A program made the translations under genes and the position numbers. Below, in pieces: positions 9,101-41,400 of a stretch of 64,000 bases of DNA. Below the pieces are notes generated by a model. It worked only from the letters and a program-made list of their open reading frames with translations, was not told the DNA's origin and ran no database searches. The number at the start of each line of letters is the position of its first letter. The first letter of the stretch is position 1. This DNA comes from a virus, in IMG/VR virus record IMGVR_UViG_3300017788_002590, positions 5,461 to 69,460 of that record, one strand, 5' to 3'.

Positions 9101-12100
9101 GATATATTATCTTTTCTAAAGATACTGCTATTCCTGCAACTTTAACAGTAGAACTGCAAAATCCATTTTTAGAAGCGTTAATCATCGCTGCTGGAGGTCA
9201 GGAGAAAAGCGTATTATTTCCACCCTCTGGTAGACTATTAACACCATATGCAAAAACAACCGTACAAACAAGTGATAAAATATATAGGGGAGATGAGGTT
9301 TCTAAAGTTACTATTAATTTACATCAGAAATACAGAAAACAATATATAAATTTTGTTCTTAATAGTCCTGCCCCAATGGGATATCTATACAAGGGGTCTT
9401 TTCACCCAAATAGCGGATTAACAACGGATGCTTCGTTATTTAGAAAGAGCGCTATTAAAGATGATACAATTTATTATGATGCTTCATTAAGAGATACTGG
9501 AGCAGCAGATACTTTTAATGAAGGATTTTGCATGATAGGGTCGTTTACTCCCAGAGTTATAAACGCTATCAATAATCTGCATCAGTTTGATTACCATAAA
9601 AAATTAAGATTATATTTGTTGATTAATGGAAAATGGTGGCAGTATAATGGTAGTAATGCTAATAGTTTTAAAGTTAACGATATTGTATATCCGGGAAGAC
9701 CATTGATTCACGAATATATTCCAAATAAAAACTTTACCAAAGGACTTCCATCTGTTTTTGTTGCTCCTGTAAAAGAATCAAATAGATTTAACTTTGTTTA
9801 TAATAAATACAACACAAATCGGTCAAATAACAACGAGCCTACGCAACCACTAGAATTTCCTATAATGTCGGAAAGATTTTATTTTTCTGATCAGGATAGG
9901 ACGACCATCACTATTCCCGGCACAAGAGCATATTATAGAATTCCAGAGATAGATCCTTCTATAGAAACCTTATTACCAAACATAGATTTTATTTATTCTT
10001 TTGTTCCTAGTAATCCTAGTACATTCCAATATGGCTCGTTAATTAAATTTTTAGATGGTTCTCACTGGATATGTATTGATCCAAGCAAACCGAATCTTAG
10101 AGCTTCTTATGTTTTTTCTGATTTTGATTATTTACAACATAATTTTAGTGATTTACACCTAGACTTCAAAAGGCTATCAAAATCCGGATATTTGTATAAT
10201 AGTAAAAGACCAACTTCCTTATTTGGTTGGTTTAAAAATCCAGTTTTGAGATCGTCTATGTTTATACCCATTATAGAAAAAAGCATTATTGTTAAATTTG
10301 TTACAAAAAATGGGTTACCAGTTAAAGATCTAACTAAAGAAGATGTATATATGTTACCATATACTAGACTAAAATTAGCATATGGAGTTAGAAACCAAGG
10401 TTTTACTCTAGTGAATTTTAATTACCCTCGATACCATTCTTTTGTTATATCTAATGCTGATGTAATTTTATGCGAACAGGATCCTGATATTACTAATAGA
10501 TTAATACAAAGTAAATGGGGCGACTTAATAACATTTGATGGATATATAATAGATCAATATAAAGATGCTTTATTTGATCCACAAAAGTATTATCCAAAAT
10601 CAAATTATGACAATATTTTTTATAAGACTATTATTAATAATCATAGAGAAAAAAACTTTTTTTATAGATTAGAAGACACTGGTTTGCGGGCTATAAGTGA
10701 AGGAGGCGAAATATCTAATATACCATTAGATATAACCCATGCAGGACTGGTATACTATTCGATATTACATAAATATGCTTTAGGAGAAAATACTCCATAT
10801 TCTATACAATCAGATAGTTATCATAATTACTTACCTTTTATGGATTTAAATATTCTGAACGATCCTGATCCTATAATTCCAGAATCATTGAATACACTAG
10901 TTAATTTTTATGAAAATCAAAACACGCCATTCACAGGCAAAATTAGCATAGCAGGAATACATAGAGATATTAAGCCAGCTACCGGAAATTATCTCCAGTA
11001 CGGGAACAATGATCTTTTTTGGATTAATTTTTCTGGAATCGAACAAGCAAAATCCGCTTTTGTACCATATAATAACTTTTTTAGTCCCACATTAAGAATA
11101 GATGATCCTCCGTTTGTATTTAGTAGAACTTTTAGAGAAACCGTACGTTTTCCAGGAACATACAATCCTCCTTGTATTAATACATTTCAACCTCTTCATA
11201 TTATTGATTACTCCGAAAGCACAGCTAGATTTGATGCTACATCATCTTTCGGTACTTGGCGACATCAAAGCAGAACTCCACATTATAGGTTTCATATATA
11301 TTGTGATACAGATAATAGCACGTGTGATAATAATGGTTGTTATGGCAATATTGATCAAGGCATAAAACATATTGGTTGGACTAATATCAAAGCCGAATAT
11401 AATGTTGGTATAAATTTTGATACTAATATACCAGACGTTGTTCCATATTATATTTCTTATGATGCTGGTTTATATAATGCTTTAGGAAGTGATTCTGTTA
11501 TTACCATAGCAAGATCAGAATTAGCTTCTTTTGGGAATTTTTTCCCTGTGAGAACAGCACAAAGAGTGGCTGCCGAAGGTATATCCGCAGATACTATGTG
11601 TAGTACTCCTTATGTTATTCCTATGGATTATAAGTCTAGTACTATAAATCCTATATATCAAGAAACATTAACCCGTGGGGTTGCGCAACAGAGCCATACT
11701 ACTAGTGTTCTTAATACTGATGCTATGGCTTCAGAGATGCTATTCAGAATTATGTATGGGGAATCTCAAAATGTTAATAAAAATATGTTTTTAGTATCAA
11801 ATAATTTAATAACTAAAAAAGATCTTATCGCATATACAGATCCTCCTATTACTGCTTTAGATTTATACAAAGAAATTCTTTATAACTATGATATTGGCGC
11901 AGATATGAGTAATATGAATATAAATGGATCATTTACTGTGGATGCTGTGCAATCTGTTGGAGGAGCATTATCTATAACAATAGGAGATACTATTTGTTTA
12001 TTCAATATACGTAGAGAAGAAGGTTCTATATATATAGTAGGTAGTATTGGTTCTAGGTCAATGAGGGAAAGACTATTTGTGGAATCTTGGCAAGATAGAC

Positions 12101-14472
12101 AATATGTTGTACAAAGCTGGGATCCTGGACAAAATGAACCTCCTCCTATTTTTCCTTCTAGTGCAAATGGTACTGTGAGTTTGTTGGGAGAATGCAATAT
12201 ATTAGATAAATATGTATATGGATTATATGCTGGTTCGTGTTATGATGGACCGACATCCTCATTTGCGGTAGGAGAGGGACCTAATGGTTGCGAAGCCGCT
12301 GTTGCTCATGCCACACAATACGGCGCTAGTGTATCTGTTGTTGCACATAGCAGAGCACAAGCTACAGAACACTATAATTTTAGAGGTAATGGAAGTTGTT
12401 GTTGCGGATTTGCCGGAGGGTGCGGCGGTCCTTGTTATTGTTTAACCATACAAGAAATAAAACCGATGAGTGTGCAATACTATTGTGACGATGAAACATG
12501 GGGACCGGTAAGTTTTATCGAACCTAAGACTCGCACACCGGAATTTGGATGTATGGGATTTGGACATGAATGCACAGAGTATAGAGTAGGATATTGCGGA
12601 GTTGACGATTGTCCATCATGTGCTAATACATTAATATCTCATGATAAAGTTAATTTTAATTATACATTTGAATACTGTAGATATGTTTTTAATCTAAAAG
12701 GCCATGCATATAGACAAAGGCACAGAAGTCTTACTTTTGATACTATAATTAGGCCAAGACCGGAAGAATGTTACAATTTTGTAACACCTATTATGCCTGG
12801 TCAGTGCGGTCGTCCAGAGACCGGAGGAGACGCTTTTACTTATTGCAATACATATCCTTATATTACTGACTGGCAAAAAATGGAAGATTTTTTCCATAAT
12901 AATATAGTGCTTGGATATTCAGAAATAGATGCAGATCCAGAAGAACCGGATTGTTTACCTAAAAAAACTTGTTTAGCTTCTATAGGTGCTGCTAGATGTG
13001 GAGACAATGCAAGAGGGGGAGCTTACTTCGGTTGTCCTTCGTGTGTGATGCCTCCGTGTGTTCCACAAATTGGTGGCACTCATTGCTCTAGAGGGTCTTA
13101 TTTCAAGGCTAGAGGAGTAGATTATGAGGGATATGAAACTCGTAACGCGAACAGGCTTGGTTTCAATCATTGCAATGTTAAACATGTATGTGGAACCATA
13201 CGTAGTGGCAGTCATAATGTTAAACAATATAGAAGAATATGGTTGACTACTCAGACTAGATCAGTAGGCACCTATAATCCGTCTTGTCCGTCTACGGTAT
13301 TAAGCGTTAACTATACTTCTAAAACTATTACTGTTAATGTTGGAGGTAAGTCTTATTGTATACCCCACACTGTAAATGGTTGTCCAAGAATTGCTATTAG
13401 TACAAATATGGAACAATTATCAATAACAGATTCTGTTAATAGCAGTTGTGATAAATGTTCCCCAACACCCGCTCAAATAGTATTAAATCCTCAAACACAA
13501 AGTTTTTTGACTAGACAAGAAAGAAGATTATGTGTTTTAGGTATAAAATATTCTAATAGTGTAAATTCACCAGGTGTGGTTTGCGAAGGAGGAGGAATTC
13601 CCCTGGTTAGTGTTTGCGCCCAATGCGGTGGTGGGCCTGTAGAATACGGATGTATGGAATGGGGTACTATTACTCATGATTCACCACAAATATGGGCAGG
13701 ACAAACTATAGAGTGTTTAAGGGGATTACCAGGAGGCATACCTGGCGGTCTTGTTGGGTATGAATTAGAGGAGTGGAGATGGGAATTGGATCAAATAGCT
13801 AGACAGAGATATGCTTATTTAGGAGATGGTGCTGCTCATATACCACCAAATGATATTTTAGAAGGAGTATTACCTGGTAGCGTAAGTACACCACAAATTT
13901 TAAGTTTTAATGTTGGAGGATCCAAACGAACAAGGGCGGGTGTAGTAGCCAACAATGTTGCCACAGCACATGTGGCTTACTACGAATATACTTATATTAG
14001 ACCACTAAGCATTCAAGATATTTTACGCAATGACAATTCCCTTATATGCGCACCCGACGGCGGTCCTGCTATAACAAATAATATTGTGCAAAATATTAGA
14101 GATTCTTTATCTAATAATGTTTCTTTTAATTACTATAATAATAGTTTAGGATATTGTCAATTATTGCCATATCCTCCTGAATTTAGACAAGTATTTACTG
14201 GATATCAAGGAGAAAGATTTTATTATTATAATCAAGGCATAGTAGACGGATCTTCATATACAGACACAAGACCATTCTTTAAACAAGAAAATAATTGCGA
14301 CAGTTCTATTTCTTGCTATTATAACCATAGCGTATTCGTATGCGGTCAAAATGATTATTGTTGTTTTAGTGATTTATCAGTCGGTAACAATACAGGTATC
14401 AAACCCACTTGTACTATGAACAATCAATATGGTCAACCAGGACAAGAACTTACTAATATCTATTATCCATAA
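6160..14472 (+). CDS. Giant Cys-rich hypothetical protein, probable virion/tail component (2770 aa)
   Basis: 8.3-kb uninterrupted ORF with dense Cys clusters at both ends (TCCSGAC; GSCCCGFAGGCGGPCYC). No family recognised. Confidence 0.5.
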   Translation: MSCEIFDKDLIADVIDLNSSNISVNLSWLTQRMGGGITFSGVWRPIYVYPNQNNSLASPLMSARTRGASFFTPCDCSDGSINMDPITEQIEESSLCSYCGDYAVQWRLYDIAGNASPRAHSGTCCSGACDVRFRADDYLPKIPVLNHAYITGVTDFKYKQEFPACNNPQTLGCDGFVFIPPAARRQIGGNAYMAVDWSIRETISEIPYDKFTSHHDSEYLHNKSYKKSKMVSNTCGNFLMLSVNTIPGLPATGHYYIKSYPILSGLLGTTVSGDMPDSVLPTPQQFAELPYGIDEEKYKNIFIHDEKIASYWKWNYASGVLCWYRYYDMHRINDQRPIPGVDLYIPPGDVFFATNDGPEPATSLSNPTGLNGLIQSCPSGLKVVDNGQFKCIIPSGSEFLYISNNLYSKFYEIYYRLSQRTGSRDALILSAVLATAPQYDQITVDLLRDSFNSDYSKNQFFQIDTLNKDMQYTTTMDSVSQLNYISNKKELIATLASKYGTYLYIPPRSNINIAFNQTINSSFGLELDFDMVFDKNDINWSNYGATCQPFTSCASRFFRKEYHYNQTISGPEGFGLPLYVWPEIAMRHNRSCVDNRDGTSTLTNSDYRLYSAIVLNGQILKQVPSSSGCYIIKDTYPRIAERDNLNSCSNCDQYSSFYRINNAETVECGVAYPSFCYATLARRFNNSPPQFTNDPQNRPERTLKDGTVRFERKYRATFFNPYVDTLAFHAQGGLMINSYPFGLDSEVVFRQNDPTPPSTTNNITINFETKDMGLKIYSIAAEYLQTQLSSSSDCKRFPVKESCKCWPINMTPLHSQDCNNPNRSYFSTPNFYTPSLSTRFSPRLQQYGGYTQKELDNIFGPSVLTAGSLLSPLNNLINPENPYGCDSTASIELHNYTNTRWTLNPVGFSTSHADVEVSINEDINLLGNRYRTILHREGGDSPGQVTDYWLEYRPLLDAKRFATKVYIPEGTFNNTFYANQRYIIFSKDTAIPATLTVELQNPFLEALIIAAGGQEKSVLFPPSGRLLTPYAKTTVQTSDKIYRGDEVSKVTINLHQKYRKQYINFVLNSPAPMGYLYKGSFHPNSGLTTDASLFRKSAIKDDTIYYDASLRDTGAADTFNEGFCMIGSFTPRVINAINNLHQFDYHKKLRLYLLINGKWWQYNGSNANSFKVNDIVYPGRPLIHEYIPNKNFTKGLPSVFVAPVKESNRFNFVYNKYNTNRSNNNEPTQPLEFPIMSERFYFSDQDRTTITIPGTRAYYRIPEIDPSIETLLPNIDFIYSFVPSNPSTFQYGSLIKFLDGSHWICIDPSKPNLRASYVFSDFDYLQHNFSDLHLDFKRLSKSGYLYNSKRPTSLFGWFKNPVLRSSMFIPIIEKSIIVKFVTKNGLPVKDLTKEDVYMLPYTRLKLAYGVRNQGFTLVNFNYPRYHSFVISNADVILCEQDPDITNRLIQSKWGDLITFDGYIIDQYKDALFDPQKYYPKSNYDNIFYKTIINNHREKNFFYRLEDTGLRAISEGGEISNIPLDITHAGLVYYSILHKYALGENTPYSIQSDSYHNYLPFMDLNILNDPDPIIPESLNTLVNFYENQNTPFTGKISIAGIHRDIKPATGNYLQYGNNDLFWINFSGIEQAKSAFVPYNNFFSPTLRIDDPPFVFSRTFRETVRFPGTYNPPCINTFQPLHIIDYSESTARFDATSSFGTWRHQSRTPHYRFHIYCDTDNSTCDNNGCYGNIDQGIKHIGWTNIKAEYNVGINFDTNIPDVVPYYISYDAGLYNALGSDSVITIARSELASFGNFFPVRTAQRVAAEGISADTMCSTPYVIPMDYKSSTINPIYQETLTRGVAQQSHTTSVLNTDAMASEMLFRIMYGESQNVNKNMFLVSNNLITKKDLIAYTDPPITALDLYKEILYNYDIGADMSNMNINGSFTVDAVQSVGGALSITIGDTICLFNIRREEGSIYIVGSIGSRSMRERLFVESWQDRQYVVQSWDPGQNEPPPIFPSSANGTVSLLGECNILDKYVYGLYAGSCYDGPTSSFAVGEGPNGCEAAVAHATQYGASVSVVAHSRAQATEHYNFRGNGSCCCGFAGGCGGPCYCLTIQEIKPMSVQYYCDDETWGPVSFIEPKTRTPEFGCMGFGHECTEYRVGYCGVDDCPSCANTLISHDKVNFNYTFEYCRYVFNLKGHAYRQRHRSLTFDTIIRPRPEECYNFVTPIMPGQCGRPETGGDAFTYCNTYPYITDWQKMEDFFHNNIVLGYSEIDADPEEPDCLPKKTCLASIGAARCGDNARGGAYFGCPSCVMPPCVPQIGGTHCSRGSYFKARGVDYEGYETRNANRLGFNHCNVKHVCGTIRSGSHNVKQYRRIWLTTQTRSVGTYNPSCPSTVLSVNYTSKTITVNVGGKSYCIPHTVNGCPRIAISTNMEQLSITDSVNSSCDKCSPTPAQIVLNPQTQSFLTRQERRLCVLGIKYSNSVNSPGVVCEGGGIPLVSVCAQCGGGPVEYGCMEWGTITHDSPQIWAGQTIECLRGLPGGIPGGLVGYELEEWRWELDQIARQRYAYLGDGAAHIPPNDILEGVLPGSVSTPQILSFNVGGSKRTRAGVVANNVATAHVAYYEYTYIRPLSIQDILRNDNSLICAPDGGPAITNNIVQNIRDSLSNNVSFNYYNNSLGYCQLLPYPPEFRQVFTGYQGERFYYYNQGIVDGSSYTDTRPFFKQENNCDSSISCYYNHSVFVCGQNDYCCFSDLSVGNNTGIKPTCTMNNQYGQPGQELTNIYYP

Positions 14473-22183: not shown

Positions 22184-23868
22184 TTGATACTCTCTTTCAT
22201 TTTTGCGTATTGTATAAAGTCTTCTTGAGAAAGTAAATGCTGCTGGCTTAGAGCATCCATAGCTAAATTGTGGTTGTGTACTATGTTATTGAGCATACTC
22301 AATGTTTGCTGTATTGTGTACGGTTGTGTTTGCATACCATTCAACACGAATCCATAATTTATGTCTCGAATACTATTAAGCAATAAAGAAGAGGATAAAA
22401 TTTGATGGTTACCCATTTTTTGGGTTACTATTCTCGTAATATTTTGATGAACAGTTTGTTTCGAATCAAAATCCGATTCTGTCAAAGGATTCAATTTGGG
22501 TAACGGCTGGTTCCATTTACCTTGTAAGTTTACCAATTTAACATTGTCTAGATAATTTTCCCATTTCTTGGCAATATCATCCCAGTTATAATGCTGTTCA
22601 GTTAATTTACGAGTTTCAAATCTTTTTTGTTCCTGTATAAATTCTGGTTGATTAATAAAATTGTGCAAAATACTAACTAAACTATCGTCATCCGGATAAA
22701 CTCTAATAGCCTTGGTTTCAAGCTCTCTAAAATATTGATTAACAGCTATTGGAAAAGCATCTAGGTTTTTGATTATATCTTGCATAGCACTATAGTCTAC
22801 TGTGGCTATAGGAACACCAGCAGCACCGGCTTCTACTTGGGGCATACCAAAACCTTCGCATATCGCATACTGAACATACATATCCATTGTATTGTAAATA
22901 GTATTAAGTTCAGCTTGACTAATTCCATGACTGACATTAGGCATAGAAAAAGCCTTTTGTCCACACCTAGGACAGATAGCCATAGGGTGCTGGTATAAGG
23001 ATGGGCCATAGAAGCCGCAATGTTTGCATGAATATGTAAATAATACCTTATTTCCTATCTCATATTCCTTGAGAAATAAAGGAATATCCCATCCAGCGTC
23101 AGGATAACTAGTATGTAAATATATAAGAATTTTGCCAGCTTTTGGATGATTTTCTTGATGTAGTTTATCTATAAATTTTTTAACAGCAACGCATAGTTCT
23201 GGTATTAATTTACGTTTTTGATTCCTCATTACTGCGCCGATAATAAAAGAATCCGGATCAAGATTCATAGCAGATTTTAACGCTTTTCTCTGATCTTTTG
23301 GTAGTGGCACAAATACATCTAAATTTACGCCAGGAGAAGTTGTGGAGATATAGTTGATTCTGCTATTACTTTGTGATTTAAGAGTATCTCTACCAAAATC
23401 AGAATATGTCATTATTGCATCAGCATGAACAAATGTGTCTATCCATTCTTCTTGCTGAGGAGCCGAATCAACCGTCGGCATAAGAATCCAATGGAAATAT
23501 GGTCGATATGGACTAAACTGCTGATAAGAATTCATCCAATAGTCTCTAACATCTATTACAATATCCGGTTGAAAATCTAGCAAAACTCTTTCGAATCTCC
23601 ATCTTCCAAATTGGTTTTCCATACTAGAATTATATTCTTGACTTCTAGGGTCGTTACCCTCAACAGCATTTGCATAGTATTTCCAGTGTATGTTGCTATC
23701 TTTTGGATCGTTAACCTTACCATAGCAAGCAAACTCAGCTATCTCATATTTGTTGGTATTATGTAAACGAGATAGAATTTCATTAGCATATGTACCAAAG
23801 CCAGAACTCAGAAAACTCGCTTCGGAAACCATCAAAACTTTTATTTTTTTTTGTTGTTGTTTGTCCAT
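22180..23868 (-). CDS. GT4 glycosyltransferase with inserted zinc ribbon
   Basis: SGFGTY, RNQKRK, intact EGFGMPQVEAGAAGVP motif, inserted CKHC...CPRC. Start likely ATG 23868; the ORF-track start at 23895 lies in the terminator region. Confidence 0.8.
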   Translation of the reverse strand: MDKQQQKKIKVLMVSEASFLSSGFGTYANEILSRLHNTNKYEIAEFACYGKVNDPKDSNIHWKYYANAVEGNDPRSQEYNSSMENQFGRWRFERVLLDFQPDIVIDVRDYWMNSYQQFSPYRPYFHWILMPTVDSAPQQEEWIDTFVHADAIMTYSDFGRDTLKSQSNSRINYISTTSPGVNLDVFVPLPKDQRKALKSAMNLDPDSFIIGAVMRNQKRKLIPELCVAVKKFIDKLHQENHPKAGKILIYLHTSYPDAGWDIPLFLKEYEIGNKVLFTYSCKHCGFYGPSLYQHPMAICPRCGQKAFSMPNVSHGISQAELNTIYNTMDMYVQYAICEGFGMPQVEAGAAGVPIATVDYSAMQDIIKNLDAFPIAVNQYFRELETKAIRVYPDDDSLVSILHNFINQPEFIQEQKRFETRKLTEQHYNWDDIAKKWENYLDNVKLVNLQGKWNQPLPKLNPLTESDFDSKQTVHQNITRIVTQKMGNHQILSSSLLLNSIRDINYGFVLNGMQTQPYTIQQTLSMLNNIVHNHNLAMDALSQQHLLSQEDFIQYAKMKESIK

Positions 23869-23891
23869 GGTATTATAATATGTGTAGTAAA

Positions 23892-23929
23892 CCATAAAAC
23901 AGGGGTACTCTGGCTACCCCTGATTATGG
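23892..23929 (-). terminator. Rho-independent terminator after ssb
   Basis: On the - strand: CAGGGGTA-gccagag-TACCCCTG followed by TTTT. Core stem 23900-23922, with CCATAA/TTATGG outer pairing. Confidence 0.7.
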
Positions 23930-23947
23930 CCTACTTTAGATTATTGC

Positions 23948-24325
23948 TCAGAATGCGACCGGTTCGCTCTGAGAGACTTCTTCCTTTTCTGAAGCAGATA
24001 GTCTGGTGATTTTGGAGAAGTTATTTACGCGAACCTTGAGTGAATTGTGCTTGACACCGTCCTTTTGCCAAGAATCATTTCTCAAAGCTCCTTCCACCAG
24101 AACCAAATCGCCCTTCTTAAAGGACTTGCCTATAATCTCGGCCCCGGAGTCCCAAGCTTCGCACGGAACAAAAGTTGTTATCTTATCCTTTTCTCCATTT
24201 GATTTAACGTACTCCCTTGAAACCGCAATAGTAAAATTGACAACCGATGTGCTCTTCCCGTTAGTTGTTACAGTTCGTAGATCGGGATCTCTTGCTAAAT
24301 TACCTCGTAATATATTGATATTCAT
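23948..24325 (-). CDS. ssb: Single-stranded DNA-binding protein
   Basis: LRGNLARDPDLR, FTIAVSR, KGDLVLVEGAL, acidic tail ending EPVAF; AAGGAG RBS. Confidence 0.93.
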   Translation of the reverse strand: MNINILRGNLARDPDLRTVTTNGKSTSVVNFTIAVSREYVKSNGEKDKITTFVPCEAWDSGAEIIGKSFKKGDLVLVEGALRNDSWQKDGVKHNSLKVRVNNFSKITRLSASEKEEVSQSEPVAF

Positions 24326-24368
24326 ATCTGCTCCTTAAAAATGTAGAAAATAACCAAACCAATACTGT

Positions 24369-24397
24369 ATTATACCATGTCGTCGTTTGGGAGTCAA
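24369..24397 (-). promoter_or_regulatory. Sigma70-type promoter for ssb
   Basis: TTGACT (24397-24392), 17-nt spacer, TATAAT (24374-24369) with extended TG. The -35 overlaps the stop codon of the upstream polymerase gene. Confidence 0.8.
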
Positions 24398-26016
24398 GTG
24401 CGTGGAATATAAGCTTTTTCAACTATAAAACTATCTCCCGAATTGTTTTTCTTTCCTTGTAGAATTACAACATTATGATCAAATAAAATATTCCTATATG
24501 TTTTGTAGGCATCGGGAAAAAATATGACACTGTCTATGGATCCATAACTATCTGATAATGTAACAAATGCCATCTCGGATCCAGGGCTTTTGCCAGTTTT
24601 TGTTTTTGTAACACTAATATTATCTATTTCTCCACAAATCAATAGGTTTTCTCTATTAAGAATAGTTTTAAACTCTTTACAATTACAATTTGTCATACTT
24701 ACATCATACATATCTACTTTAGAACAAGTGATACTACAACCTAAAATCTCTTCCTCAGAATCAGATAACCATTCTGCACTATCATCCATCGAATATGGCG
24801 GAAAAGCCAAAGTATCTATTAATCCATTAATAGCATCAATTCTTTTTTTTGTTGTTCTTGGTTTATTTTTTAAAGACTGTAGACCATTTTTTAACGAGTT
24901 ATCAGATTTGGTATTCATTTGAATGAATTGTTGTTCACTTTTTGTTAATGAGCTTGCTATATCAAATTCAAACATCATAGATGTTCTAGTTTTTTTACAA
25001 AAAGATAATGCTCCACTTTTAATTAAGGCTTTAGCAGACATAGAGTTTATATTTAGTAGTATGTCGAATAATAGTTCGTACCAAGAAATCGATTGTAAAT
25101 CTATATTTTTTTGGACTATGATATCTTTTAGTTTTGAGAAAACAGAATTGCCAAAACCTTTGATATCTGTTAAACCAAAATATATGCACTGATTTTTTAG
25201 TATAAAAAATTCATTAAGATTTCTTAAGTCAGGAATACAAACCGATATATCCATTTCGTTAGCATTCTGAACTAGTTCCTTAATTTCTGCTTTTGGATTA
25301 ATCTTGTCTTTGGCAAAACGCAGATATGATGCAAAAAATATTTTAGGGAAATGTGCTTTTGTAAAAGCTGATAGATAAGCATTCATAGCATACGATACAG
25401 CATGGCTTTTATTAAAAGAATATCTTTGGCTTTTTTCTATCCATCCGAAAATTTCTTCTGCTTGTTTAATATTTACTGTGCCTAACTTATCACATCCATC
25501 TAAGAATTTAGTTTTAAGTTTTGCCATTTCTTCTGGTTTTTTCTTTCCTATAGCTTTTCTTAAACTATCTGCTTCTTGTAAGTCGAAACCAGCTATAATT
25601 TTGGCTATTTCCATGGCTTGTTCCTGATATATCATTTCTCCATATGTTTTTTTTAGAATTGGTTCTAATGATGGATGATAATAGTCTACAGATTCTTGTC
25701 CATTTTTTTTGTCTATATAATGATTGCTAACGGTTTTACCATCTCTAATAGCTTCCAAGCATCCTGGTCTTAGAATACTAATCAAAGCCGATAGTTGCTC
25801 TATGTTTTTAGGTTTTAGTTTTTTTGCCATAGACCTACCAAGTCTAGACTCAAGCTGAAAACATCCTTTTGTATTTCCTTCTGAAATTAAATCCCATGTC
25901 ATATTACAGTCTAAATTTAGAGTGTCATTAATTGGATCAAAGTCTATCAATGGATAGCCCTCTGTTTCCGAAATCACCTTAAATTTGCAACCACAAGGAT
26001 ATGTATAATACTTCAT
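24394..26016 (-). CDS. dnaE: DNA polymerase III alpha, C-terminal subunit (fingers, HhH, OB fold)
   Basis: GCFQLES, LISILRPG, YQEQAM, ADSLRKAIGKK, YSFNKSHAVSY, FGLTDIKGFG, MAFVTLSD. Confidence 0.9.
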   Translation of the reverse strand: MKYYTYPCGCKFKVISETEGYPLIDFDPINDTLNLDCNMTWDLISEGNTKGCFQLESRLGRSMAKKLKPKNIEQLSALISILRPGCLEAIRDGKTVSNHYIDKKNGQESVDYYHPSLEPILKKTYGEMIYQEQAMEIAKIIAGFDLQEADSLRKAIGKKKPEEMAKLKTKFLDGCDKLGTVNIKQAEEIFGWIEKSQRYSFNKSHAVSYAMNAYLSAFTKAHFPKIFFASYLRFAKDKINPKAEIKELVQNANEMDISVCIPDLRNLNEFFILKNQCIYFGLTDIKGFGNSVFSKLKDIIVQKNIDLQSISWYELLFDILLNINSMSAKALIKSGALSFCKKTRTSMMFEFDIASSLTKSEQQFIQMNTKSDNSLKNGLQSLKNKPRTTKKRIDAINGLIDTLAFPPYSMDDSAEWLSDSEEEILGCSITCSKVDMYDVSMTNCNCKEFKTILNRENLLICGEIDNISVTKTKTGKSPGSEMAFVTLSDSYGSIDSVIFFPDAYKTYRNILFDHNVVILQGKKNNSGDSFIVEKAYIPRT

Positions 26017-26708
26017 GTCTTATTTTTGAAAGAGTCCTTAAACTTGACTTTAGTAGACATTTTTCTGTGTAGTCTTAGAAATCGTATAAGTATTTCTGCA
26101 CAGTCTTTGACATCTTTTAAAGCATCATGAGCACCGTCTTTTGAGATTCCCAAATAATCTCTTAGCGTATCCATAGAATAATTTTTGAGATCATTATTTT
26201 GTTCGAACCAATAAAAAACTAAATTCATAATATCAATTATATCTCTAGGATAAAAAAGATTACTAGTATTTTCCTTATTTACATTATTGTGCTTTTTACT
26301 CAAACGATCAACTATTTTCATATCGAATCTGTATATATTATACCCAGCCGCTATAGGAGCGGAAAATTGACTTTTTTTACTAGCTCTAGTGTGGTATTTC
26401 ATCAAGTATTCAGTAAAAACCTTCCAAGAATGTTGTTGATTTGGATAGGTTAGCCACTGTTGTAAAATATTTTCTTTAGCACATCCTCTTACTTTGGCAT
26501 GAAAATCTAGAATATCTGTTTGGTATTCATATTTCTCGTCTTTCTCTAGAGGCTCGGGCTTTAAGAAAATATTACATTCGGAATCTGGTATAATTTCCAA
26601 ACTCAAAGGATCTATCATTATAGCGGCCAATTGTACGGGACTGCATTCGCTTGGATCGGTCCCGTCTGTTTCAAAATCGAAAACACAAATTTTGTTGTAA
26701 TTGATCAT
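26013..26708 (-). CDS. DEDDh 3'-5' exonuclease (DnaQ/epsilon-like)
   Basis: FDFETDG (ExoI), GYNIYRFD (ExoII), HDALKD (ExoIII). Confidence 0.88.
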   Translation of the reverse strand: MINYNKICVFDFETDGTDPSECSPVQLAAIMIDPLSLEIIPDSECNIFLKPEPLEKDEKYEYQTDILDFHAKVRGCAKENILQQWLTYPNQQHSWKVFTEYLMKYHTRASKKSQFSAPIAAGYNIYRFDMKIVDRLSKKHNNVNKENTSNLFYPRDIIDIMNLVFYWFEQNNDLKNYSMDTLRDYLGISKDGAHDALKDVKDCAEILIRFLRLHRKMSTKVKFKDSFKNKT

Positions 26709-26714
26709 TGATAG

Positions 26715-26885
26715 TCAGTCTACCTTTGTTACGTCGTTTGCTGGGACAATAAAAGCTTTTTCATTAGTTGCTATAACTTTTGCATTCAAAACTTTACAGC
26801 AGCTAATTCTTTCATCTGGAATTCTTATATATTCTATATTATCATATATAAATTTATCGTTAACTTGTAATTCATGGAATTTCAT
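26715..26885 (-). CDS. Small 56-aa hypothetical protein (not in ORF track)
   Basis: Manual translation: MKFHELQVNDKFIYDNIEYIRIPDERISCCKVLNAKVIATNEKAFIVPANDVTKVD*. AAGGAG RBS; fills the gap between dnaE-N and the exonuclease. Confidence 0.7.
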   Translation of the reverse strand: MKFHELQVNDKFIYDNIEYIRIPDERISCCKVLNAKVIATNEKAFIVPANDVTKVD

Positions 26886-26886
26886 T

Positions 26887-28761
26887 TTATGCTCCTTTTT
26901 GTAAAAGTTGTTGAATAGTCATAACCTTATCAAGCATTGCTACACCAAGAATATCGAATTTAATAATTCCAATAGATTCTAGATCTTGCATTTCCATACC
27001 GGCAATCATTTGATTATTTTTGGTATCATAAACCATAGGACATATTTCGTTTAATGGAGTAGCGCTGATAGCGATACCAGCGGCATGTTTAGATTGGTTA
27101 GATTTGGTGCCTTCTAATCTCATAGACTGATCAAATCTTTTTGCTAGCGGTCCCTGAGTTTCGCCCTTGTCGTCTAAATAGCACCATTCTTTGAGTTTAT
27201 CCGCATTGTTTTCTAATGCCCATCTAATAATTGATGCTTCGCCGGTTTCTTCTTTCATTTCTTGTAGCTCATCTGCTATTTTGGCTTCATCCGGAATATT
27301 TTTAGTTATATTATTCATTTCATCAAAAGACACGTTACCATAAACTCTCAGAACATCTTTTAGAGCACCTCTTCCTTTGATAGTATTAAATGTAATCATT
27401 TGTGATACTTTATCAGCACCGTATTGATTTTTAATATATTGAATTACATTTTCTCTCTGGTTAATTGGAACATCGACATCTATATCTGGCATAGAAATAT
27501 GATTGGAGGTATTTCTACCGGCGTTATAAAATCTATCAAACATTAGATTATATTCTATGGGATTAATATTCGTAATACCTATTAGGTATGACACCAAACA
27601 GCCAGCAGCGCTTCCTCTGCCAGGACCGGGAAGCCAATTATTATTACGAACATAATTTACAATATCTTGCACTATAAGAAAATAACTTGATAATCCAGCA
27701 CCTTGCAACACATCTAATTCATATTTAATGCGATCCACATATTGTGCTTGATTTTCTAGCGGTATTTGATTAGCTATTTTTTGTTTCCATCCTGTGCGAC
27801 ATAATTCTCTAAGATACTCCACATCGGTTTGTTGTTTTGGACACTTAAACGGAGGTAGATTAGGTGTGCTTAGTATATTGTATTCCTCGCATAAAGAATC
27901 TACTAGTTTAGTGTTCTCTATTTCTTCTTCGGTATGCAAATCATTGATTTCTTCCTGAGATAATATATGAAAATTATCTGAAAGAAAAAATGCAGATAGT
28001 GGAACTTTTTCGTTATTGGTAATTTTTCTATTGATCTCTGGAAATGTTGTTTTCAGATTATTACATAATAAAATTCTTTGATCAATAGCGTCGCTTTTAT
28101 TGCAATAATGAGCGTCTGGTGTGCATACTATCTTGGTTCCGGTTAAAAGACCGAGTTGTCTTGTACACTCGGTTAGTTTTTCTTGAATAGGAGCATTTTG
28201 CTTATCCATTAACTGAACCTCAAGAAAAAAATTGTTTTTCCCAAATATATCTTTCATAGTAGATATATGGTTTTCTCCGATATTTTTCCAATCGCTTATG
28301 ATATTATCGTCAGAAACTATTGAATCGGCTAATGTGGACCCCAAATGACCACTAATTCCGATTAGATTACCGTCTATTAAATCTTGTAGTTGTTGTAAAC
28401 TTAATCTTGGTTTATGGTAATAAAATTCTGGTTTATTAGACATAGAAACTATTTTAATTAAGTTTTTCCAGCCCTTATAGTTTTTAGCTAAAACCAGCAA
28501 ATGACTAAGAGATTTATTAGATTTATCTTGAATAGACGCATGGTTATCAGAAACATACAATTCGCACCCAAGAATTGGTTTGATGCCTCTACGCTTCATT
28601 TCTGTATAGAACTTGATGCTTCCGGCGATATTGCCATGATCCGTTAAGGCACAACTACTAACACCTATTTGTTCGCATCTGTCTGCTATCTGAGAAGGTT
28701 TAGATAAACCATCTAATAACGAGTACATAGAATGTACATGCAAAGGAATATATTGTTTCAT
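26887..28761 (-). CDS. dnaE: DNA polymerase III alpha, N-terminal subunit (PHP, palm, thumb)
   Basis: LHVHSMYSLLDG, TDHG, DAHY, GPGRGSAAGCLVSY, MPDIDVD, HAAG, KFDILG; stop shortly after KFDILG. Confidence 0.92.
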   Translation of the reverse strand: MKQYIPLHVHSMYSLLDGLSKPSQIADRCEQIGVSSCALTDHGNIAGSIKFYTEMKRRGIKPILGCELYVSDNHASIQDKSNKSLSHLLVLAKNYKGWKNLIKIVSMSNKPEFYYHKPRLSLQQLQDLIDGNLIGISGHLGSTLADSIVSDDNIISDWKNIGENHISTMKDIFGKNNFFLEVQLMDKQNAPIQEKLTECTRQLGLLTGTKIVCTPDAHYCNKSDAIDQRILLCNNLKTTFPEINRKITNNEKVPLSAFFLSDNFHILSQEEINDLHTEEEIENTKLVDSLCEEYNILSTPNLPPFKCPKQQTDVEYLRELCRTGWKQKIANQIPLENQAQYVDRIKYELDVLQGAGLSSYFLIVQDIVNYVRNNNWLPGPGRGSAAGCLVSYLIGITNINPIEYNLMFDRFYNAGRNTSNHISMPDIDVDVPINQRENVIQYIKNQYGADKVSQMITFNTIKGRGALKDVLRVYGNVSFDEMNNITKNIPDEAKIADELQEMKEETGEASIIRWALENNADKLKEWCYLDDKGETQGPLAKRFDQSMRLEGTKSNQSKHAAGIAISATPLNEICPMVYDTKNNQMIAGMEMQDLESIGIIKFDILGVAMLDKVMTIQQLLQKGA

Positions 28762-28763
28762 TT

Positions 28764-29801
28764 TCAGGTGCTACCAGGAGCCTTATATTGACCTATGTTA
28801 TAGTCTGGTCTTTTATATTCGGCAATAACGTTGTTTATACCTTTAATATTAATATCATGATATATTTGCTCACACTTATTCATACATGATCCTACAGGCG
28901 TAACCTGTCCATCCCTGTATTCAATAATAGGCTGATGCGTCGATTGCTCAAAGGTTGTTTTTCCAAAATGACACAGCTTATTGCATTTCCAAGTTTTGTG
29001 TCTTTCTGGTACTATTGTTTTTTTGATAGTGTCGAATTTATTTTTTAACATCATTTCTACTTTACTTAAATGACTTTTATCAAAACAAATAGAAAACATA
29101 CCGCCATCATTAATAAAATTGATAGAAATAATGATATTATCAATATCTGGATATAAATGTTGTATAGCATAGAAATATATCATTAGCTGAGGATCAGAAT
29201 TTAATTTGGCTAATGTTTTTTCTTCTCCTGTGGCCCAATCTAATCTGCGACCTGTTTTCCAGTCTATGACTTCGAGAGTAGAATCATTAACCCTGGTGAT
29301 TAAGTCTATTGTTCCTTTGATACCCAAATATCCATCTAGTTTTTCTGGTTGGTCGAAATGATATTTAGCCCACTCTTTTTTAATTTCTATGTCAAAATGT
29401 TGTTCTGGACTTACTATTTCTCTATTCCTAGGATCGAACATGCCATTGTTATATTCGAGAGCTTTATAAACCCACTTACGACAATCTTTATGATCTGTGA
29501 TTGACCATTCATGATGAGTAAAACGACTAGTATAATATTCATATACTTGATCAATAATTGTTTCTAGATCATAATTAACAATGTCTATTTGATTAATCAC
29601 ATCGTCATAAAAATACGGCCTGCCTTGTTGCGTACTCAGTTTTATCCATGCTAGAATTTCAAAAACCTTATGACAAATAGTGCCTTTATCTGCTTTTTTA
29701 TTAGAGGGGGATTTTAGACCTAAATTGTACTCTATGAAATATTGCATTGGACACATCGTGTGTGTCGCATAAGAGCTGCTACGTAAATATGTAATTATAA
29801 T
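28764..29801 (-). CDS. PD-(D/E)XK nuclease (RecB/AddB/Cas4-like), probable ATT start
   Basis: GTICH, GTIDL, IDWKTG, QLMIY, Cys near both ends. The in-frame extension IIITYLRSSSYATHT lies upstream of the first ATG (29756). Confidence 0.8.
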   Translation of the reverse strand: MIITYLRSSSYATHTMCPMQYFIEYNLGLKSPSNKKADKGTICHKVFEILAWIKLSTQQGRPYFYDDVINQIDIVNYDLETIIDQVYEYYTSRFTHHEWSITDHKDCRKWVYKALEYNNGMFDPRNREIVSPEQHFDIEIKKEWAKYHFDQPEKLDGYLGIKGTIDLITRVNDSTLEVIDWKTGRRLDWATGEEKTLAKLNSDPQLMIYFYAIQHLYPDIDNIIISINFINDGGMFSICFDKSHLSKVEMMLKNKFDTIKKTIVPERHKTWKCNKLCHFGKTTFEQSTHQPIIEYRDGQVTPVGSCMNKCEQIYHDINIKGINNVIAEYKRPDYNIGQYKAPGST

Positions 29802-38423: not shown

Positions 38424-41400
38424 TTAGATTAGACATGCTCCACCAGCACAACTAATTTCCTCTATTCCAGTAGTATTATCCTCTGTTTCCAATAGTTGTG
38501 TATAATCTACTTTCTTAAATGTATTTAACAAATCACAATATATTTTCCAATTATATACATCTTTCATACAATAAGTAAGTCTTCTTATATCTCCATCAAA
38601 ATATTTACCAGCAAAATTTTTCATTTTAGTTACAAAGACTAATCTGGTGTCAGGATCTGAGGACTTAGCCTGATTCATTGCTACATAATCACAAGCTTTC
38701 CATAGATCACTATCGAAACTTGCTAACCCTAGTTCTATAAGTCCTGAGCACCATAACGCAGCATCTCCGTATTCTTTTACTATCTCTCTACTAGTGTAGA
38801 CTGTCGTAAATGGAGCTTGAGGATAATCTTTATCTCCGCTTTGAGGTATCAAACTAACACCAGCAAAGTATTTTCTATTGTTATAGATATAATTTGTTAC
38901 ATCTTCCCATTCTTCCGGCTTAACAGTCACGGTATTACTTACATTATGACTTAAAAACTCTTGAGTACACAGTGCTTTATTTTTACCAGAATATACCCAA
39001 TTTTTTTGTGTATCTTTAACTATTGATAACATTTCTACCGCTGGTAATTGATTCTTTAATTTAGCCCCATCTGGAACTTCAATAGGAAACTTAATTACTT
39101 CATCCGTATTGTTAGCAGACCACGAAGAACGCTCACAGGCTTGTGGGTTATAATTTTTGAAGTGTTGATATGGTGCTTCTAAAACATTGGCCTGTACGTG
39201 TCTTATATAGCGTTTAGCGTGGTGTGGGTGGATGCCAGAACTTGTTCCTAACATAGAACTAGATGTTCCCTCCGGTTTTAAACAGGTTACTCTAGCAGCT
39301 TGATTAATTCCGATTTTTTTGGCCATTTCTTTATTAGTTTCTACAGCAATTTTAGCTCCTGCCTTAAGAACTTTTTCTGTTAATACTATATCGTGTTTTT
39401 CCATGATCCCAGTTAAAGAGACCCCTAATAAGGCTTCTCTCTCAAAGATTCTACAGCTAATCTCGCCCAAATAATCTAATTTAGTAAATCCGGCTTGAAG
39501 AGTACCAATAATAGCTGCTGCTTTGCATCTTTCATAAAAATCATTCTCATCTGTAACACTAGAACAATTAATTGTAGACAGATTACAACCTTGCCAACCA
39601 CTCTTGCCGGTTTCTGCATCGACAGGCCACATACCAACTTCCACACAGTTATGTACATAAATAGCATCATTATCGAAAGCATGAATACCTTCTACTGTAC
39701 AATCATACACATCTAATTCACCAACTATGGTCTTATTAATTAAAGTATCAACAAAGTTAGTTCTATTTGGCATTCTTTGATAATTATTAACTATTGTTTG
39801 AATTTTATTAGCTTTATCAATATTTTTAATAGGAATATATTTGGCAAATCTAACTATGTTATCACTAGTAATAACTAGTTCGTGTGATGCTTGGCAGAAA
39901 TAGCTTTTTGTTCCACCACTACCATCTGGCATAACCCTATCACCTTCTGATCTGCGATTTTTATAGATCTTAGAATAAATACCTAAAGCATTAAGTGCTA
40001 TTTGTAGATTTTGTAAATTTTCTAATTGAACTGATGATATTCTTAAGGAAGATCCTTTGATATTATTAACTAATACTGTTCCATCAGCATCGAAATAACC
40101 GGCAATTAAGCCAGAAATATGATTCCAAGACCCACAGATGGACTTTTTACTTAATCTTTTGGATGTTCCAACCATGCAATCGTGATTAATAGCAAATTCC
40201 ATAAGTTTTCTTGATTCTATAGAACTATATACAGCAATAGAATTTTGTTCTGAAGAATTATGATTATTAGTAAATCCAACATCATGAAGCATTTGATATG
40301 CTTCTTGCCTATATTGCTCTTTAGATTCTCCCCACCACTTTAATTGTGCGGAAGATCTCGAATGATTTCCGTCTCCCAGGAACAATCCTAATAAATATCC
40401 TTTTTTCCAATCAGACGATAGTATATTTAGATTAGCCTCGCTGTCTAATGGATAATCTCTATGATTATTAATAACAATATTTTCACCAAAATTTATATCC
40501 CCTGCTTCTTTCCAGCCTGTTGTGGTCATGATTTTATGGTTTGGAGTTACTCTCAGGGTTCTACCTGATTTAAAATGTAATTCTATTACTTGTTTTGTGC
40601 CAGTTTTCCAGAAGCCTTTGTAGCTTGGATACGATATACCATCCACGATAGCATTAAATGGTTTATTTATAAGATCAGCAACCATTTTAATACCACGATC
40701 AGTTACTACGGTAGAATCTGCAACAACACAAGGATTAAAAGTCATCTCTGTAGAATCACTCCAAATGAATCCTGGCTCACCAAATTCTTTGACGCTTTCC
40801 ATCAATATTTCAAATTCTTCAAAAGTAGTATCATCTTTAAGTAACAAAGCAGAGTTATTGCTTCGTGCTCTTTGTGGATTTTCCGTATACCAGTTGCCAG
40901 TTTTAGCTTTAGCCATCTCTTCATCATTGGGACTAAATAGTGCCAAACTAGCAGAACGACGAACACCACCAGACAATACAGCATCGCTACTATGCATAAT
41001 AATATCATATGCATCAATTGGACGTAATTTCTTTTGTCCATTAGCAAGACAACGATCTAATAATGCTCGTATTTTTTCTAAGCCATTTTGTAATGGCTCA
41101 AATCCTGGAGCTTTGCCAACTCCTGATGATAATGACGATCCTTTTTCTCTAATATTAGAATAGTCAAATACTATATATTCATCCTTATAATCTTTAAATT
41201 TATCTTCCGATGGTTTAACAAAATATGAACTTAATAAAACACCTAAAGCATCAGACCAGCCCTCGATACTGTCTTCTATAACATATTTTCTACCAGTTTC
41301 TGATTTTGGTTCTTGTGATAACGATGGTAGTTTAGCAACATGGTGCTTTTGTACACTAAAGCCCGTCCCACTACCACAAAGTAATAACCAAAAACATTCC

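Follow-up and report, generated by a model that had tools for sequence, protein, structure and literature searches.

To our knowledge, C-family replicases are treated as single-chain alpha subunits, and the known exceptions are either rejoined by inteins or are reduced forms. The window analysed here, a stretch of 64,000 nucleotides of viral DNA, encodes such an alpha subunit (DnaE) in two pieces, with a proofreading exonuclease gene and a gene for a 56-aa protein between them. This raises the question of whether the two pieces are joined after transcription or translation, are no longer a polymerase at all, or act together as separate chains.

The gene module and the site of the break

The module and its borders comprise the following features, given in the order of transcription:

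28764..29756, minus strand: PD-(D/E)XK nuclease gene, upstream neighbour (Pfam; position conserved in related loci)
26887..28761, minus strand: DnaE N-part with PHP, palm and thumb, 624 aa (ORF list, Pfam, PHROG, structure alignment)
26892..26897, minus strand: AAGGAG, likely ribosome-binding site of the small ORF (read from the sequence)
26715..26885, minus strand: small ORF, product a predicted SH3/Tudor/KOW-like beta-barrel, 56 aa (ORF list, AF2 model)
26013..26708, minus strand: DnaQ/epsilon-like DEDDh 3'-5' exonuclease, 231 aa (Pfam RNase_T, phrog_192)
24394..26016, minus strand: DnaE C-part with fingers, HhH and OB fold, 540 aa (Pfam, structure alignment, AF2)
25942..26016, minus strand: leader of the C-part with CGC, residues 1-25 (alignment, AF2)
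23948..24325, minus strand: SSB gene, downstream neighbour (profile match; position conserved in related loci)
23922..23900: terminator-like hairpin after the SSB gene

The four ORFs, their lengths and their order on the minus strand were reproduced as originally predicted, and the proposed ATGA overlap of exonuclease and C-part (4 nt) is seen directly in the sequence. The N-part and the small ORF are 1 nt apart, the small ORF and the exonuclease 6 nt; altogether 874 nt, filled by two genes, separate the N- and C-part ORFs. The AAGGAG is embedded in the 3' end of the N-part reading frame and precedes the start codon of the small ORF by 6 nt, a placement which suggests translational coupling. 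Genes for a primase, a DnaB-like helicase, SSB and a recombinase are found in the neighbourhood. All four genes of the module are under purifying selection, with dN/dS values against locus L001 of 0.034 (N-part), 0.029 (small ORF), 0.019 (exonuclease) and 0.024 (C-part) at a dS of about 1.

In the N-part, Pfam detects PHP (PF02811) at residues 7-183 (E 3.5e-39, 135 bits versus a cut-off of 26.4) and DNA_pol3_alpha (PF07733) at 315-606 over the whole profile (1-260 of 260, 247.6 bits). PDIDVD (P425-D430), KFD (K601-D603) and with them the three catalytic Asp residues D426, D428 and D603 do not vary among 38 aligned N-halves, and the His/Asp/Glu positions of PHP are conserved in 38 aligned sequences. 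Pfam match and invariant residues thus agree with the claim that this half holds the PHP domain and all three catalytic Asp. The N-part ends 18 residues past KFDILG, and this tail aligns with native DnaE sequence of contiguous relatives. Alignment to solved structures places the N-half on residues 5-565 of E. coli alpha and 7-626 of the Taq enzyme, the C-half on 589-854 and 635-945, respectively. On the single full-length phage DnaE profile phrog_405, the halves cover 41-615 and 622-1076. As these stretches are consecutive, the halves are colinear with DnaE, as had been supposed; the break point lies exactly between the Pfam palm and finger models, at about residues 566-588 of E. coli alpha.

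The C-part matches DNA_pol3_finger (PF17657) at 31-177 (profile 23-164 of 166, 159 bits). Two further matches of the window's C-part fall just short of threshold, HHH_6 with 25.2 bits (cut-off 25.6) and the OB fold with 23.4 (cut-off 27); HHH_6 scores higher in the relatives L033 (36.5 bits) and L157 (28.0 bits). The AF2 model (pLDDT 79.7) has a C-terminal beta-barrel at 458-536. YSFNKSH is unbroken (FNKSH at 201-205), as had been reported, and Y199, F201, N202, S204 and H205 are invariant across the aligned C-parts. The C-part starts at its own ATG, and AF2 models residues 1-25 as a beta-meander of three strands whose first turn carries CGC.

The expectation of an intact DEDDh exonuclease between the halves is borne out by Pfam RNase_T (PF00929, 40 bits versus a cut-off of 24) and by the presence of Exo I (DxE), Exo II (D) and Exo III (Hx4D) motifs. 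D11, E13, D129, H194 and D199 are invariant or nearly so in 37 sequences. The PHROG match is phrog_192, 'DNA polymerase exonuclease subunit', and among structures there are weak matches to a solved PolC exonuclease domain and to Exo I. A search for a fused exonuclease-DnaE protein found none, which counts as weak evidence.

The AF2 model of the 56-aa protein (pLDDT 97.1) is an all-beta SH3-like barrel. F12, C29 and C30 are invariant in 67 sequences, and the C29-C30 pair is modelled at a hairpin tip. No family was matched in Pfam or PHROG, and fold searches returned generic matches alone (Foldseek E>=0.03; VIA Z<=5.2). In the E. coli Pol III core (alpha, epsilon, theta), the small third subunit binds the exonuclease. 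Theta, considered as a possible counterpart of the 56-aa protein, has a helical fold, unlike the all-beta barrel predicted here.

Conservation and origin of the break

The related set consisted of 156 IMG/VR loci on 136 distinct contigs (clade 1). Both halves are found in 142 of the 156 loci and are fused in none, so that break point and gene order, which the original prediction had asked to be checked in related contigs, are conserved. N- and C-part lie 861-994 nt apart in 126 of these loci and 1345-4511 nt apart in the other 16. Mis-assembly is ruled out by these loci together with independent assemblies, in which contigs from another study's run bridge the N-part/small ORF/exonuclease and the exonuclease/C-part junctions. 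The gap is a hotspot for extra genes, including HTH, HNH-like, LAGLIDADG, ThyX, pilin-like and membrane ORFs.

In a second clade, 20 of 23 loci show the identical break with the exonuclease alone between the halves, and these 20 have neither the 56-aa gene nor the CxC leader. The small-protein gene is present at all 156 clade-1 loci and at none of the 23 clade-2 loci. Among the best 150 representatives of 50%-identity clusters, 144 begin at the break, 5 run through it contiguously and the last one is a fragment. The split arrangement reaches down to about 40% identity and spans well above 100 clusters. The arrangement is not confined to a single contig: the split is the dominant state of a very large, very diverse viral family of uncultured freshwater/aquatic phages.

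The leader, described originally as short and novel, is present with its CGC but is not peculiar to this genome, being conserved across most of the family. CxC occurs in 70 of 74 clade-1 rows, 114 of 143 split representatives and 0 of 18 clade-2 split rows, overall in 184 of 235 split rows versus 0 of 10 contiguous rows. It is confined to split forms, some of which have lost it; the clade-1 loci L043, L048, L053 and L059 lack the leader and retain the small protein with CC.

Contiguous relatives exist (L157/L158, P0084, P0122 and P0082), hence the split is not obligatory. In the contiguous outgroup MT836213, the matches to N- and C-part lie side by side in one reading frame. The ingroup of the rooted C-part tree comprises 238 split rows and 7 contiguous ones, the latter in two clades nested within the split ones, which suggests re-fusion; a minimum of 3 changes between the two states is required. 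An AU test rejected all split rows as one clade (delta lnL 114.4, p 0.001), the tested grouping having been picked after the first tree was seen. This rejection is compatible with re-fusion or with repeated fission, but does not fit a single fission without reversal. The order of events is read from the C-part tree alone, on which one old fission followed by two re-fusions would most simply account for the distribution. Instead, an exonuclease cassette might have inserted repeatedly into the same linker, each time breaking the gene independently. This is rather unlikely, even though the gap attracts inserted genes and a small ORF and the exonuclease occur together as a unit in L157 and L160, where they lie upstream of a contiguous dnaE or inside the break. 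Independent fissions need many more changes than the tree's minimum, and the minimal cassette, the exonuclease alone, comes without a homing endonuclease.

Joining, decay or non-covalent assembly of the pieces

At E<=0.01, neither half gave any match to Hint or Intein_splicing models, while the same library detected an intein in the RNR gene of the window's genome and inteins in DnaE of the relatives L033, L114 (below cut-off) and L157. This agrees with the claim that both halves are intein-free. The extra residues at the break, an 18-aa tail and a leader of about 25 aa, come to about 43 in all, far too few to build a Hint fold. Additional breaks with a split intein and endonuclease design are seen in relatives, in the N-part (L114/L126) and near FNKSH (L157). 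Rfam models gave 0 matches at E<=1 over 23500-29500 (6 kb); searched in the same way, dnaE of Bacillus phage vB_BceM_WH1 has a full-length match to a group I intron in each of its two gaps, with E values of 1.5e-5 and 1.8e-4. Between the two DnaE halves of the window, no non-coding space is left for an intron RNA.

We regard it as likely that dnaE underwent an intein-free fission and that its products form a non-covalent, multi-subunit C-family replicase, with neither protein nor RNA splicing. Put forward in the original prediction, this stands as the best reading given the conservation, the tight gene coupling and the strong purifying selection; co-transcription, assembly and activity are inferences from the sequences, as is whatever function the small protein or the CxC leader may have. 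Fission at the palm/fingers boundary would have yielded an alpha-N (PHP, palm and thumb) and an alpha-C (fingers, HhH and OB), the gap being taken by the gene of the epsilon-like exonuclease and, in clade 1, also by that of the SH3-like protein. The four head-to-tail genes would be expressed from one transcript, probably with coupled translation. In the putative core, the catalytic Asp triad would come from alpha-N, and the fingers, which bind dNTP and template, from alpha-C.

The cysteines of the leader (CxC) and of the small protein (CC) had been suspected to mediate assembly. Clade 2 shares the break without leader or 56-aa gene, and four clade-1 loci do without the leader, so a cysteine bridge is not the general route. 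Clade 2 shows nothing recognisable as a dedicated dimerisation element; assembly there is accordingly assumed to use the native palm/fingers interface. That the CxC leader and nearby conserved cysteines and/or the CC hairpin form a metal-bridged clasp evolved after the fission is a doubtful proposal. A clasp of this kind would pin the fingers by their new N-terminus onto the rest of the core, or would anchor the exonuclease at that site; if true, the fragmented replicase would have an assembly module made for the purpose, which lineages that later lost it could do without.

Three explanations compete with a non-covalent replicase. The pieces may be no polymerase, being decaying remnants or having separate jobs while another polymerase replicates the genome. 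The record spans 69.5 kb of a probably much larger genome (related contigs reach 238 kb), so a second polymerase is conceivable, yet all four genes have a dN/dS of 0.02-0.03, neither the catalytic Asp residues nor FNKSH vary, and the arrangement persists through the depth of the family among genes for replication and recombination proteins; we consider decay or separate jobs to be very unlikely. Covalent joining after translation, by a very atypical split intein or by cysteine ligation using the CGC leader, could draw on the confinement of CxC to split forms and on the split inteins which work at other sites in this gene family (in relatives, and in loci described in part of PMC2677866). It is highly improbable in view of the blank intein scans with controls detected in the same genome and family, the few extra residues at the break, the complete lack of a leader in clade 2 and four clade-1 loci, and the native DnaE character of the N-part tail. 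RNA-level joining, i.e. cis- or trans-splicing or translational bypass yielding one alpha chain, has a precedent in the group I introns interrupting dnaE of a cultured Bacillus phage, but its probability is very low, given the empty Rfam scan, a gap taken up by two conserved genes which are held by purifying selection and separated from their neighbours by 1 nt, 6 nt or an overlap, and a C-part with its own ATG and a leader conserved in most relatives.

If the pieces reconstitute, the fingers of Pol III alpha can be supplied in trans, and domain motions and the hand-off to the exonuclease could be studied on a module that is in two pieces by nature. In that case, natural experiments would also be available within one gene family: forms with and without the leader, with and without the small subunit, with the halves re-fused, and with additional breaks that split inteins repair.

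Relation to known split and multi-subunit polymerases

The E. coli core and PolC likewise combine a C-family polymerase with a DEDDh proofreader. PolC carries its exonuclease domain inside the PHP domain of a single chain, whereas here the exonuclease is a separate gene between palm and fingers. Cyanobacterial split DnaE is likewise a C-family alpha from two genes. There, according to the part of PMC2677866 covered, each half carries a split-intein part, FNKSH adjoins the break and the two genes map to separate loci. The DnaE halves of the window give no Hint signal, keep FNKSH intact, are parted between palm and fingers and lie 874 nt apart in one cluster. The earlier view that break site and mechanism differ from those of cyanobacterial split DnaE and of PolC is thus supported. 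The 'fractured' DnaE loci of ocean metagenomes resemble the window in having a viral-type dnaE in pieces with a gene between; as described there (Dassa et al. 2009, PMC2677866), they contain a split intein and a free-standing homing endonuclease. The primary break in the window has neither and holds a proofreading exonuclease, and the part of that article covered makes no mention of an intein-free palm/fingers break.

The closest analogue in working, within the parts of the sources covered, is the intein-less split gp43 (43A/43B) of T4-related Aeromonas phages, of which the two pieces from Aeromonas phage 25 co-purify with activity, together with the split NrdA of phage Aeh1, also a functional enzyme (PMC2988022, in part). 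In both cases an essential phage replication enzyme is encoded as two adjacent genes around an intervening sequence or gene, without intein or intron, and the window similarly has adjacent ORFs colinear with a contiguous homologue, without intein or intron. As far as that part of the source describes it, gp43 differs in being of family B, not C, and in having an untranslated spacer or homing endonuclease between the pieces instead of a partner subunit. Group 2.2 jumbo phages encode a Pol III alpha module as two stand-alone proteins which are thought to reconstitute; in the part of Iyer et al. 2021 (PMC7824862) covered, it is the nucleotidyltransferase and template-binding core alone, from distant genes and beside a family B polymerase. 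By comparison, the alpha subunit of the window is full-sized (PHP, HhH-like and OB-like), its pieces are adjacent and the break is between palm and fingers. Bacillus phage vB_BceM_WH1, a large phage, likewise has dnaE annotated as several CDSs, its gaps matching group I introns, to which the dnaE region of the window gives no match. Split phage polymerases are thus already known; a full-sized C-family alpha in two chains around the gene of its proofreader is a new variant. Both halves are currently labelled 'DNA polymerase III alpha' in annotation, and either could be mistaken for a fragment.

Anatomy of the split dnaE module

The window has a G+C content of ~33%, is phage-like and derives from a single contig of 69,460 bases. 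The original prediction of a DnaE polymerase in two pieces, with two further genes between them, proved accurate in coordinates and lengths. Four head-to-tail ORFs run on the minus strand from 28761 to 24394:

DnaE N-part (alpha-N), (-), 624 aa: Pfam PHP domain and the complete palm/thumb model DNA_pol3_alpha
Small ORF, (-), 56 aa: zero matches in the Pfam search
Exonuclease, (-), 231 aa: Pfam RNase_T
DnaE C-part (alpha-C), (-), 540 aa: Pfam finger model from profile position 23, then HHH_6 and OB fold, both scoring marginally below the Pfam cut-offs

The full-length phage DnaE profile phrog_405 is covered from 41 to 615 by the N-part and from 622 to 1076 by the C-part. The C-part had been described as resuming colinearly at the fingers, and alignment to solved structures agrees. 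The N-part corresponds to residues 5-565 of E. coli alpha and the C-part resumes at 589 and extends to 854; therefore, the cut sits in the palm-fingers linker. We take the fingers of E. coli alpha to begin near residue 561, following published domain borders. The N-part terminates 18 residues past KFDILG. Along the module, the first two junctions are spacers of 1 nt and 6 nt and the third is an ATGA overlap, which leaves no spare RNA for an intron, and AAGGAG is located 6 nt before the start of the small ORF.

Neighbouring genes encode a PD-(D/E)XK nuclease, a dNMP kinase, a primase, a DnaB-like helicase, a UvsX-like recombinase and an SSB. The locus is therefore the replication module of the phage. 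Promoter and terminator scans gave counts not above those of shuffled sequences (30 vs 31.3; 4 vs 2.7). Among the sites in these scans are a near-consensus sigma-70-like site at 24369-24397 (-) (TTGACT, 17 nt spacer, TATAAT, TG), which lies across the end of the C-part immediately before SSB, and a good terminator-like hairpin after SSB at 23900-23922 (-). Elsewhere in the window, two adjacent giant ORFs at 760-6150 (+) and 6160-14472 (+), encoding 1796 and 2770 aa, have zero Pfam matches at E<=0.001, and the ORFs at 55634-58768 and 58771-60600 are without a Pfam or PHROG match.

Conservation and breadth of the arrangement

The split arrangement is real. Searching IMG/VR with each half yielded 156 loci with 61-95% identity; they come from 136 distinct contigs, the longest of 238 kb. 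Both halves were found in 142 of these 156 loci and were fused in none. Between the end of the N-part match and the start of the C-part match lie 861-994 nt in 126 loci; in a further 16, this distance amounts to 1345-4511 nt. Break point and gene order are thereby confirmed in related contigs, which throughout carry nuclease, N-part, small ORF, exonuclease, C-part and SSB; we refer to these relatives with the small ORF as clade 1. One contig of sequencing run X1 (possibly the source sample) spans the whole stretch with zero differences. Contigs from a different study (run X2) bridge the junctions of N-part, small ORF and exonuclease as well as the exonuclease/C-part junction, and the latter is also bridged in each of runs X5 and X9. 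Read joints considered as deletion or splice forms of the window phage were rejected, since they come from short pieces of low identity and joints of this kind often derive from other organisms.

Compared with the closest relative, L001, dN/dS is 0.034 for the N-part, 0.029 for the small ORF, 0.019 for the exonuclease and 0.024 for the C-part (dS ~1). Little or no variation is seen in the catalytic Asp residues, in FNKSH or in the DEDDh residues. Two loci look damaged: L116 (3205-4933) misses ~146 nt including the PDIDVD region and shows a frame change, and in L130 (7320-7989) the exonuclease is split over two short ORFs. Sequencing errors or decay could account for both.

The 4.4-kb region gave zero blastn matches among GenBank phages and the best GenBank phage by protein reaches only ~34% identity; thus, no cultured relative is at hand. 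Close relatives of the C-part (L185-L188, 62-71% identity) were found in a genome collection on MAG contigs labelled Flavobacteriales, 'bacterium' (a 141-kb contig), Chitinophagia and Alphaproteobacteria. These are probably phage contigs binned with bacteria, and we therefore rejected the labels as evidence of the host. In L051 (10740-13370) and also in L152, L140 and L067, extra genes lie between exonuclease and C-part: a hydrophobic ORF of 140-146 aa, a DUF1559 protein with a prepilin-type N-methylation motif, and ThyX. DUF1559 is typical of Planctomycetota and may hint at such a host for these relatives.

With the C-part as query, HMMER found 21,017 matches at E<=0.001 among 1.84 billion cluster representatives. 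Among the best 150 of these (38-58% identity), 144 start at the break, five have the palm upstream on the same chain and one is a fragment. No IMG/VR locus was found for the contiguous relative P0122. The contiguous representative P0084, used in its place, retrieved 23 further loci with ~40% identity to the window, here called clade 2. In 20 of the 23, the order is N-part, exonuclease, C-part, with the break at the same Pfam boundary; the exonuclease follows directly after the N-part, and the C-part starts from finger-profile position 25, without leader. In L157 and L158, PHP, palm and fingers share a contiguous ORF, directly preceded by the exonuclease gene; L179 is uninformative. A profile of the small protein matches 156/156 clade-1 loci and nothing credible in the 23 loci of this search.

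Clade-2 N-parts (L162, L165, L168, L177 and others) are ~540 aa long and match the first part of the PHP profile only (6-106 of 164 in L168); the region matching residues ~106-214 of the window N-part is missing. Given this partial match, their PHP domain may be degenerate, while the DEDDh exonuclease is kept.

Inteins, introns and the order of events

The halves had been called intein-free, and indeed neither matches Hint or intein models (E<=0.01). The 18-residue tail of the N-part aligns to native polymerase sequence of contiguous relatives. The same library detected a LAGLIDADG intein in the window's own ribonucleotide reductase (Intein_splicing 51.5 bits, LAGLIDADG_3 75.4 bits):

38424-41702, (-): class II-like ribonucleotide reductase with in-frame intein, 1092 aa (Pfam)

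It also detected an HNH intein in the C-part of L033, and split-intein parts flanking extra breaks in L114 (below curated cut-offs) and L157 (Hint above cut-off). Many of the best 150 C-part representatives carry in-frame insertions at several sites, which we take to be inteins; they were read as such from the sequences of P0082 and P0035, and by Pfam in L033. Rfam found zero matches at E<=1 over 6 kb around the module. Searched in the same mode as a positive control, the dnaE of Bacillus phage vB_BceM_WH1 (L184), which is annotated as three CDSs (gp235-237), matched group I introns over their full length in each of its two gaps. The interruption by introns distinguishes this gene from that of the window.

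L184 5205-5818: group I intron-like RNA RF00028, E 1.8e-4, below gathering score
L184 6903-7227: group I intron-like RNA RF00028, E 1.5e-5, below gathering score

Further breaks occur in some relatives. L157 (7064-12687) and L158 have a dnaE broken near FNKSH by a split intein, close to the cyanobacterial split-intein site; the pieces flank a gene for a NUMOD3/DUF559 (Vsr-like) endonuclease. In L114 (4032-7108; L126 and L127 alike), the N-part has a second break with split-intein-like ends (Pfam below cut-offs) and an Endo I/TnsA-like nuclease gene in between, which leaves DnaE in three pieces, an arrangement like that of the 'fractured genes' of PMC2677866. In L148 (4134-7127; L155 and L156 alike), the N-part is broken immediately before PDIDVD, with a free-standing LAGLIDADG endonuclease gene in between. 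This break showed zero intein matches; the downstream piece carries ~87 additional, unexplained residues at its N-terminus.

Trees of the C-part region (FastTree, 245 rows; IQ-TREE, 59 rows, LG+G4, quick search) were rooted on three contiguous GenBank phage enzymes. Of the ingroup rows, 238 are split and 7 are contiguous. The latter form two separate nested clades (support 0.989 and 0.997; 99* and 99*), and the minimum number of state changes is 3. An AU test rejected the tree with all split rows as one clade (delta lnL 114.4, p 0.001); the grouping was chosen once the first tree was known, and the data were those of the C-part only. One old fission followed by two re-fusions is the history with the fewest assumptions. 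The alternative is repeated insertion into the same palm-fingers linker.

Relation to known polymerases and a putative replicase

The arrangement differs from each known case compared. Cyanobacterial split DnaE and metagenomic 'fractured' DnaE loci are joined by split inteins at other sites (PMC2677866), whereas the break in the window shows no intein signal. In group 2.2 jumbo phages, the minimal split Pol III module lacks PHP and has its pieces at distant genes (PMC7824862); in the window, PHP is present and the pieces are adjacent.

In PolC, the exonuclease is a domain of one single chain, in contrast to the separate gene of the window. A palm/fingers break with an exonuclease gene was undescribed in the openly available literature searched, including PMC12926913, PMC10674732, PMC2677866, PMC7824862 and PMC2988022; the locus list that supplements PMC2677866 may bear on this. 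Public annotation names the parts 'DNA polymerase-3 subunit alpha' and 'epsilon subunit-like'. The arrangement is real and widespread, and of interest to replication enzymologists.

We propose that the replicase core would be held together non-covalently, with PHP and the active site contributed by alpha-N, the fingers and the parts that bind DNA by alpha-C, and proofreading by the DEDDh enzyme. All subunits would be produced in step from the tightly coupled genes. The nearest working analogue of such a core is gp43 of Aeromonas phage 25, split without an intein into two parts that co-purify and polymerise DNA (PMC2988022). The small beta-barrel protein of clade 1 and the cysteine-bearing leader of the C-part would be later additions.

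The CxC motif of this leader is present in 70/74 clade-1 rows and 114/143 split representatives, and in 0/18 clade-2 split rows and 0/10 contiguous rows. Thus, the leader tracks the split state, yet loss can occur. A genuinely later start of the C-part is seen in L043, L048, L053 and L059, where the small protein nevertheless retains CC. In the AlphaFold model (pLDDT about 80), the leader forms a meander of three strands whose first turn carries CxC; our guess is a zinc site in the leader.

The small protein is modelled as an SH3/Tudor/KOW-like barrel (pLDDT 97) with the invariant CC at a hairpin tip. Fold searches gave generic SH3/Tudor/KOW/EF-P-domain-I matches only (Foldseek E>=0.03; VIA Z<=5.2), which point to no particular function, and Protein Atlas returned unnamed viral clusters only, every score <0.9. 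A fusion ('Rosetta stone') search found no longer protein containing either the small protein or the exonuclease, a blank that is weak evidence. Prediction of a complex of the small protein with the exonuclease, C-part 1-200 and N-part 290-624 scored 0.00 in a run without controls, and favours neither binding nor its absence. The small protein may partner the exonuclease: in all loci examined, nothing is inserted between their two genes, and in L157 and L160 the exonuclease gene likewise comes after a small ORF, though a different one of 76-83 aa.
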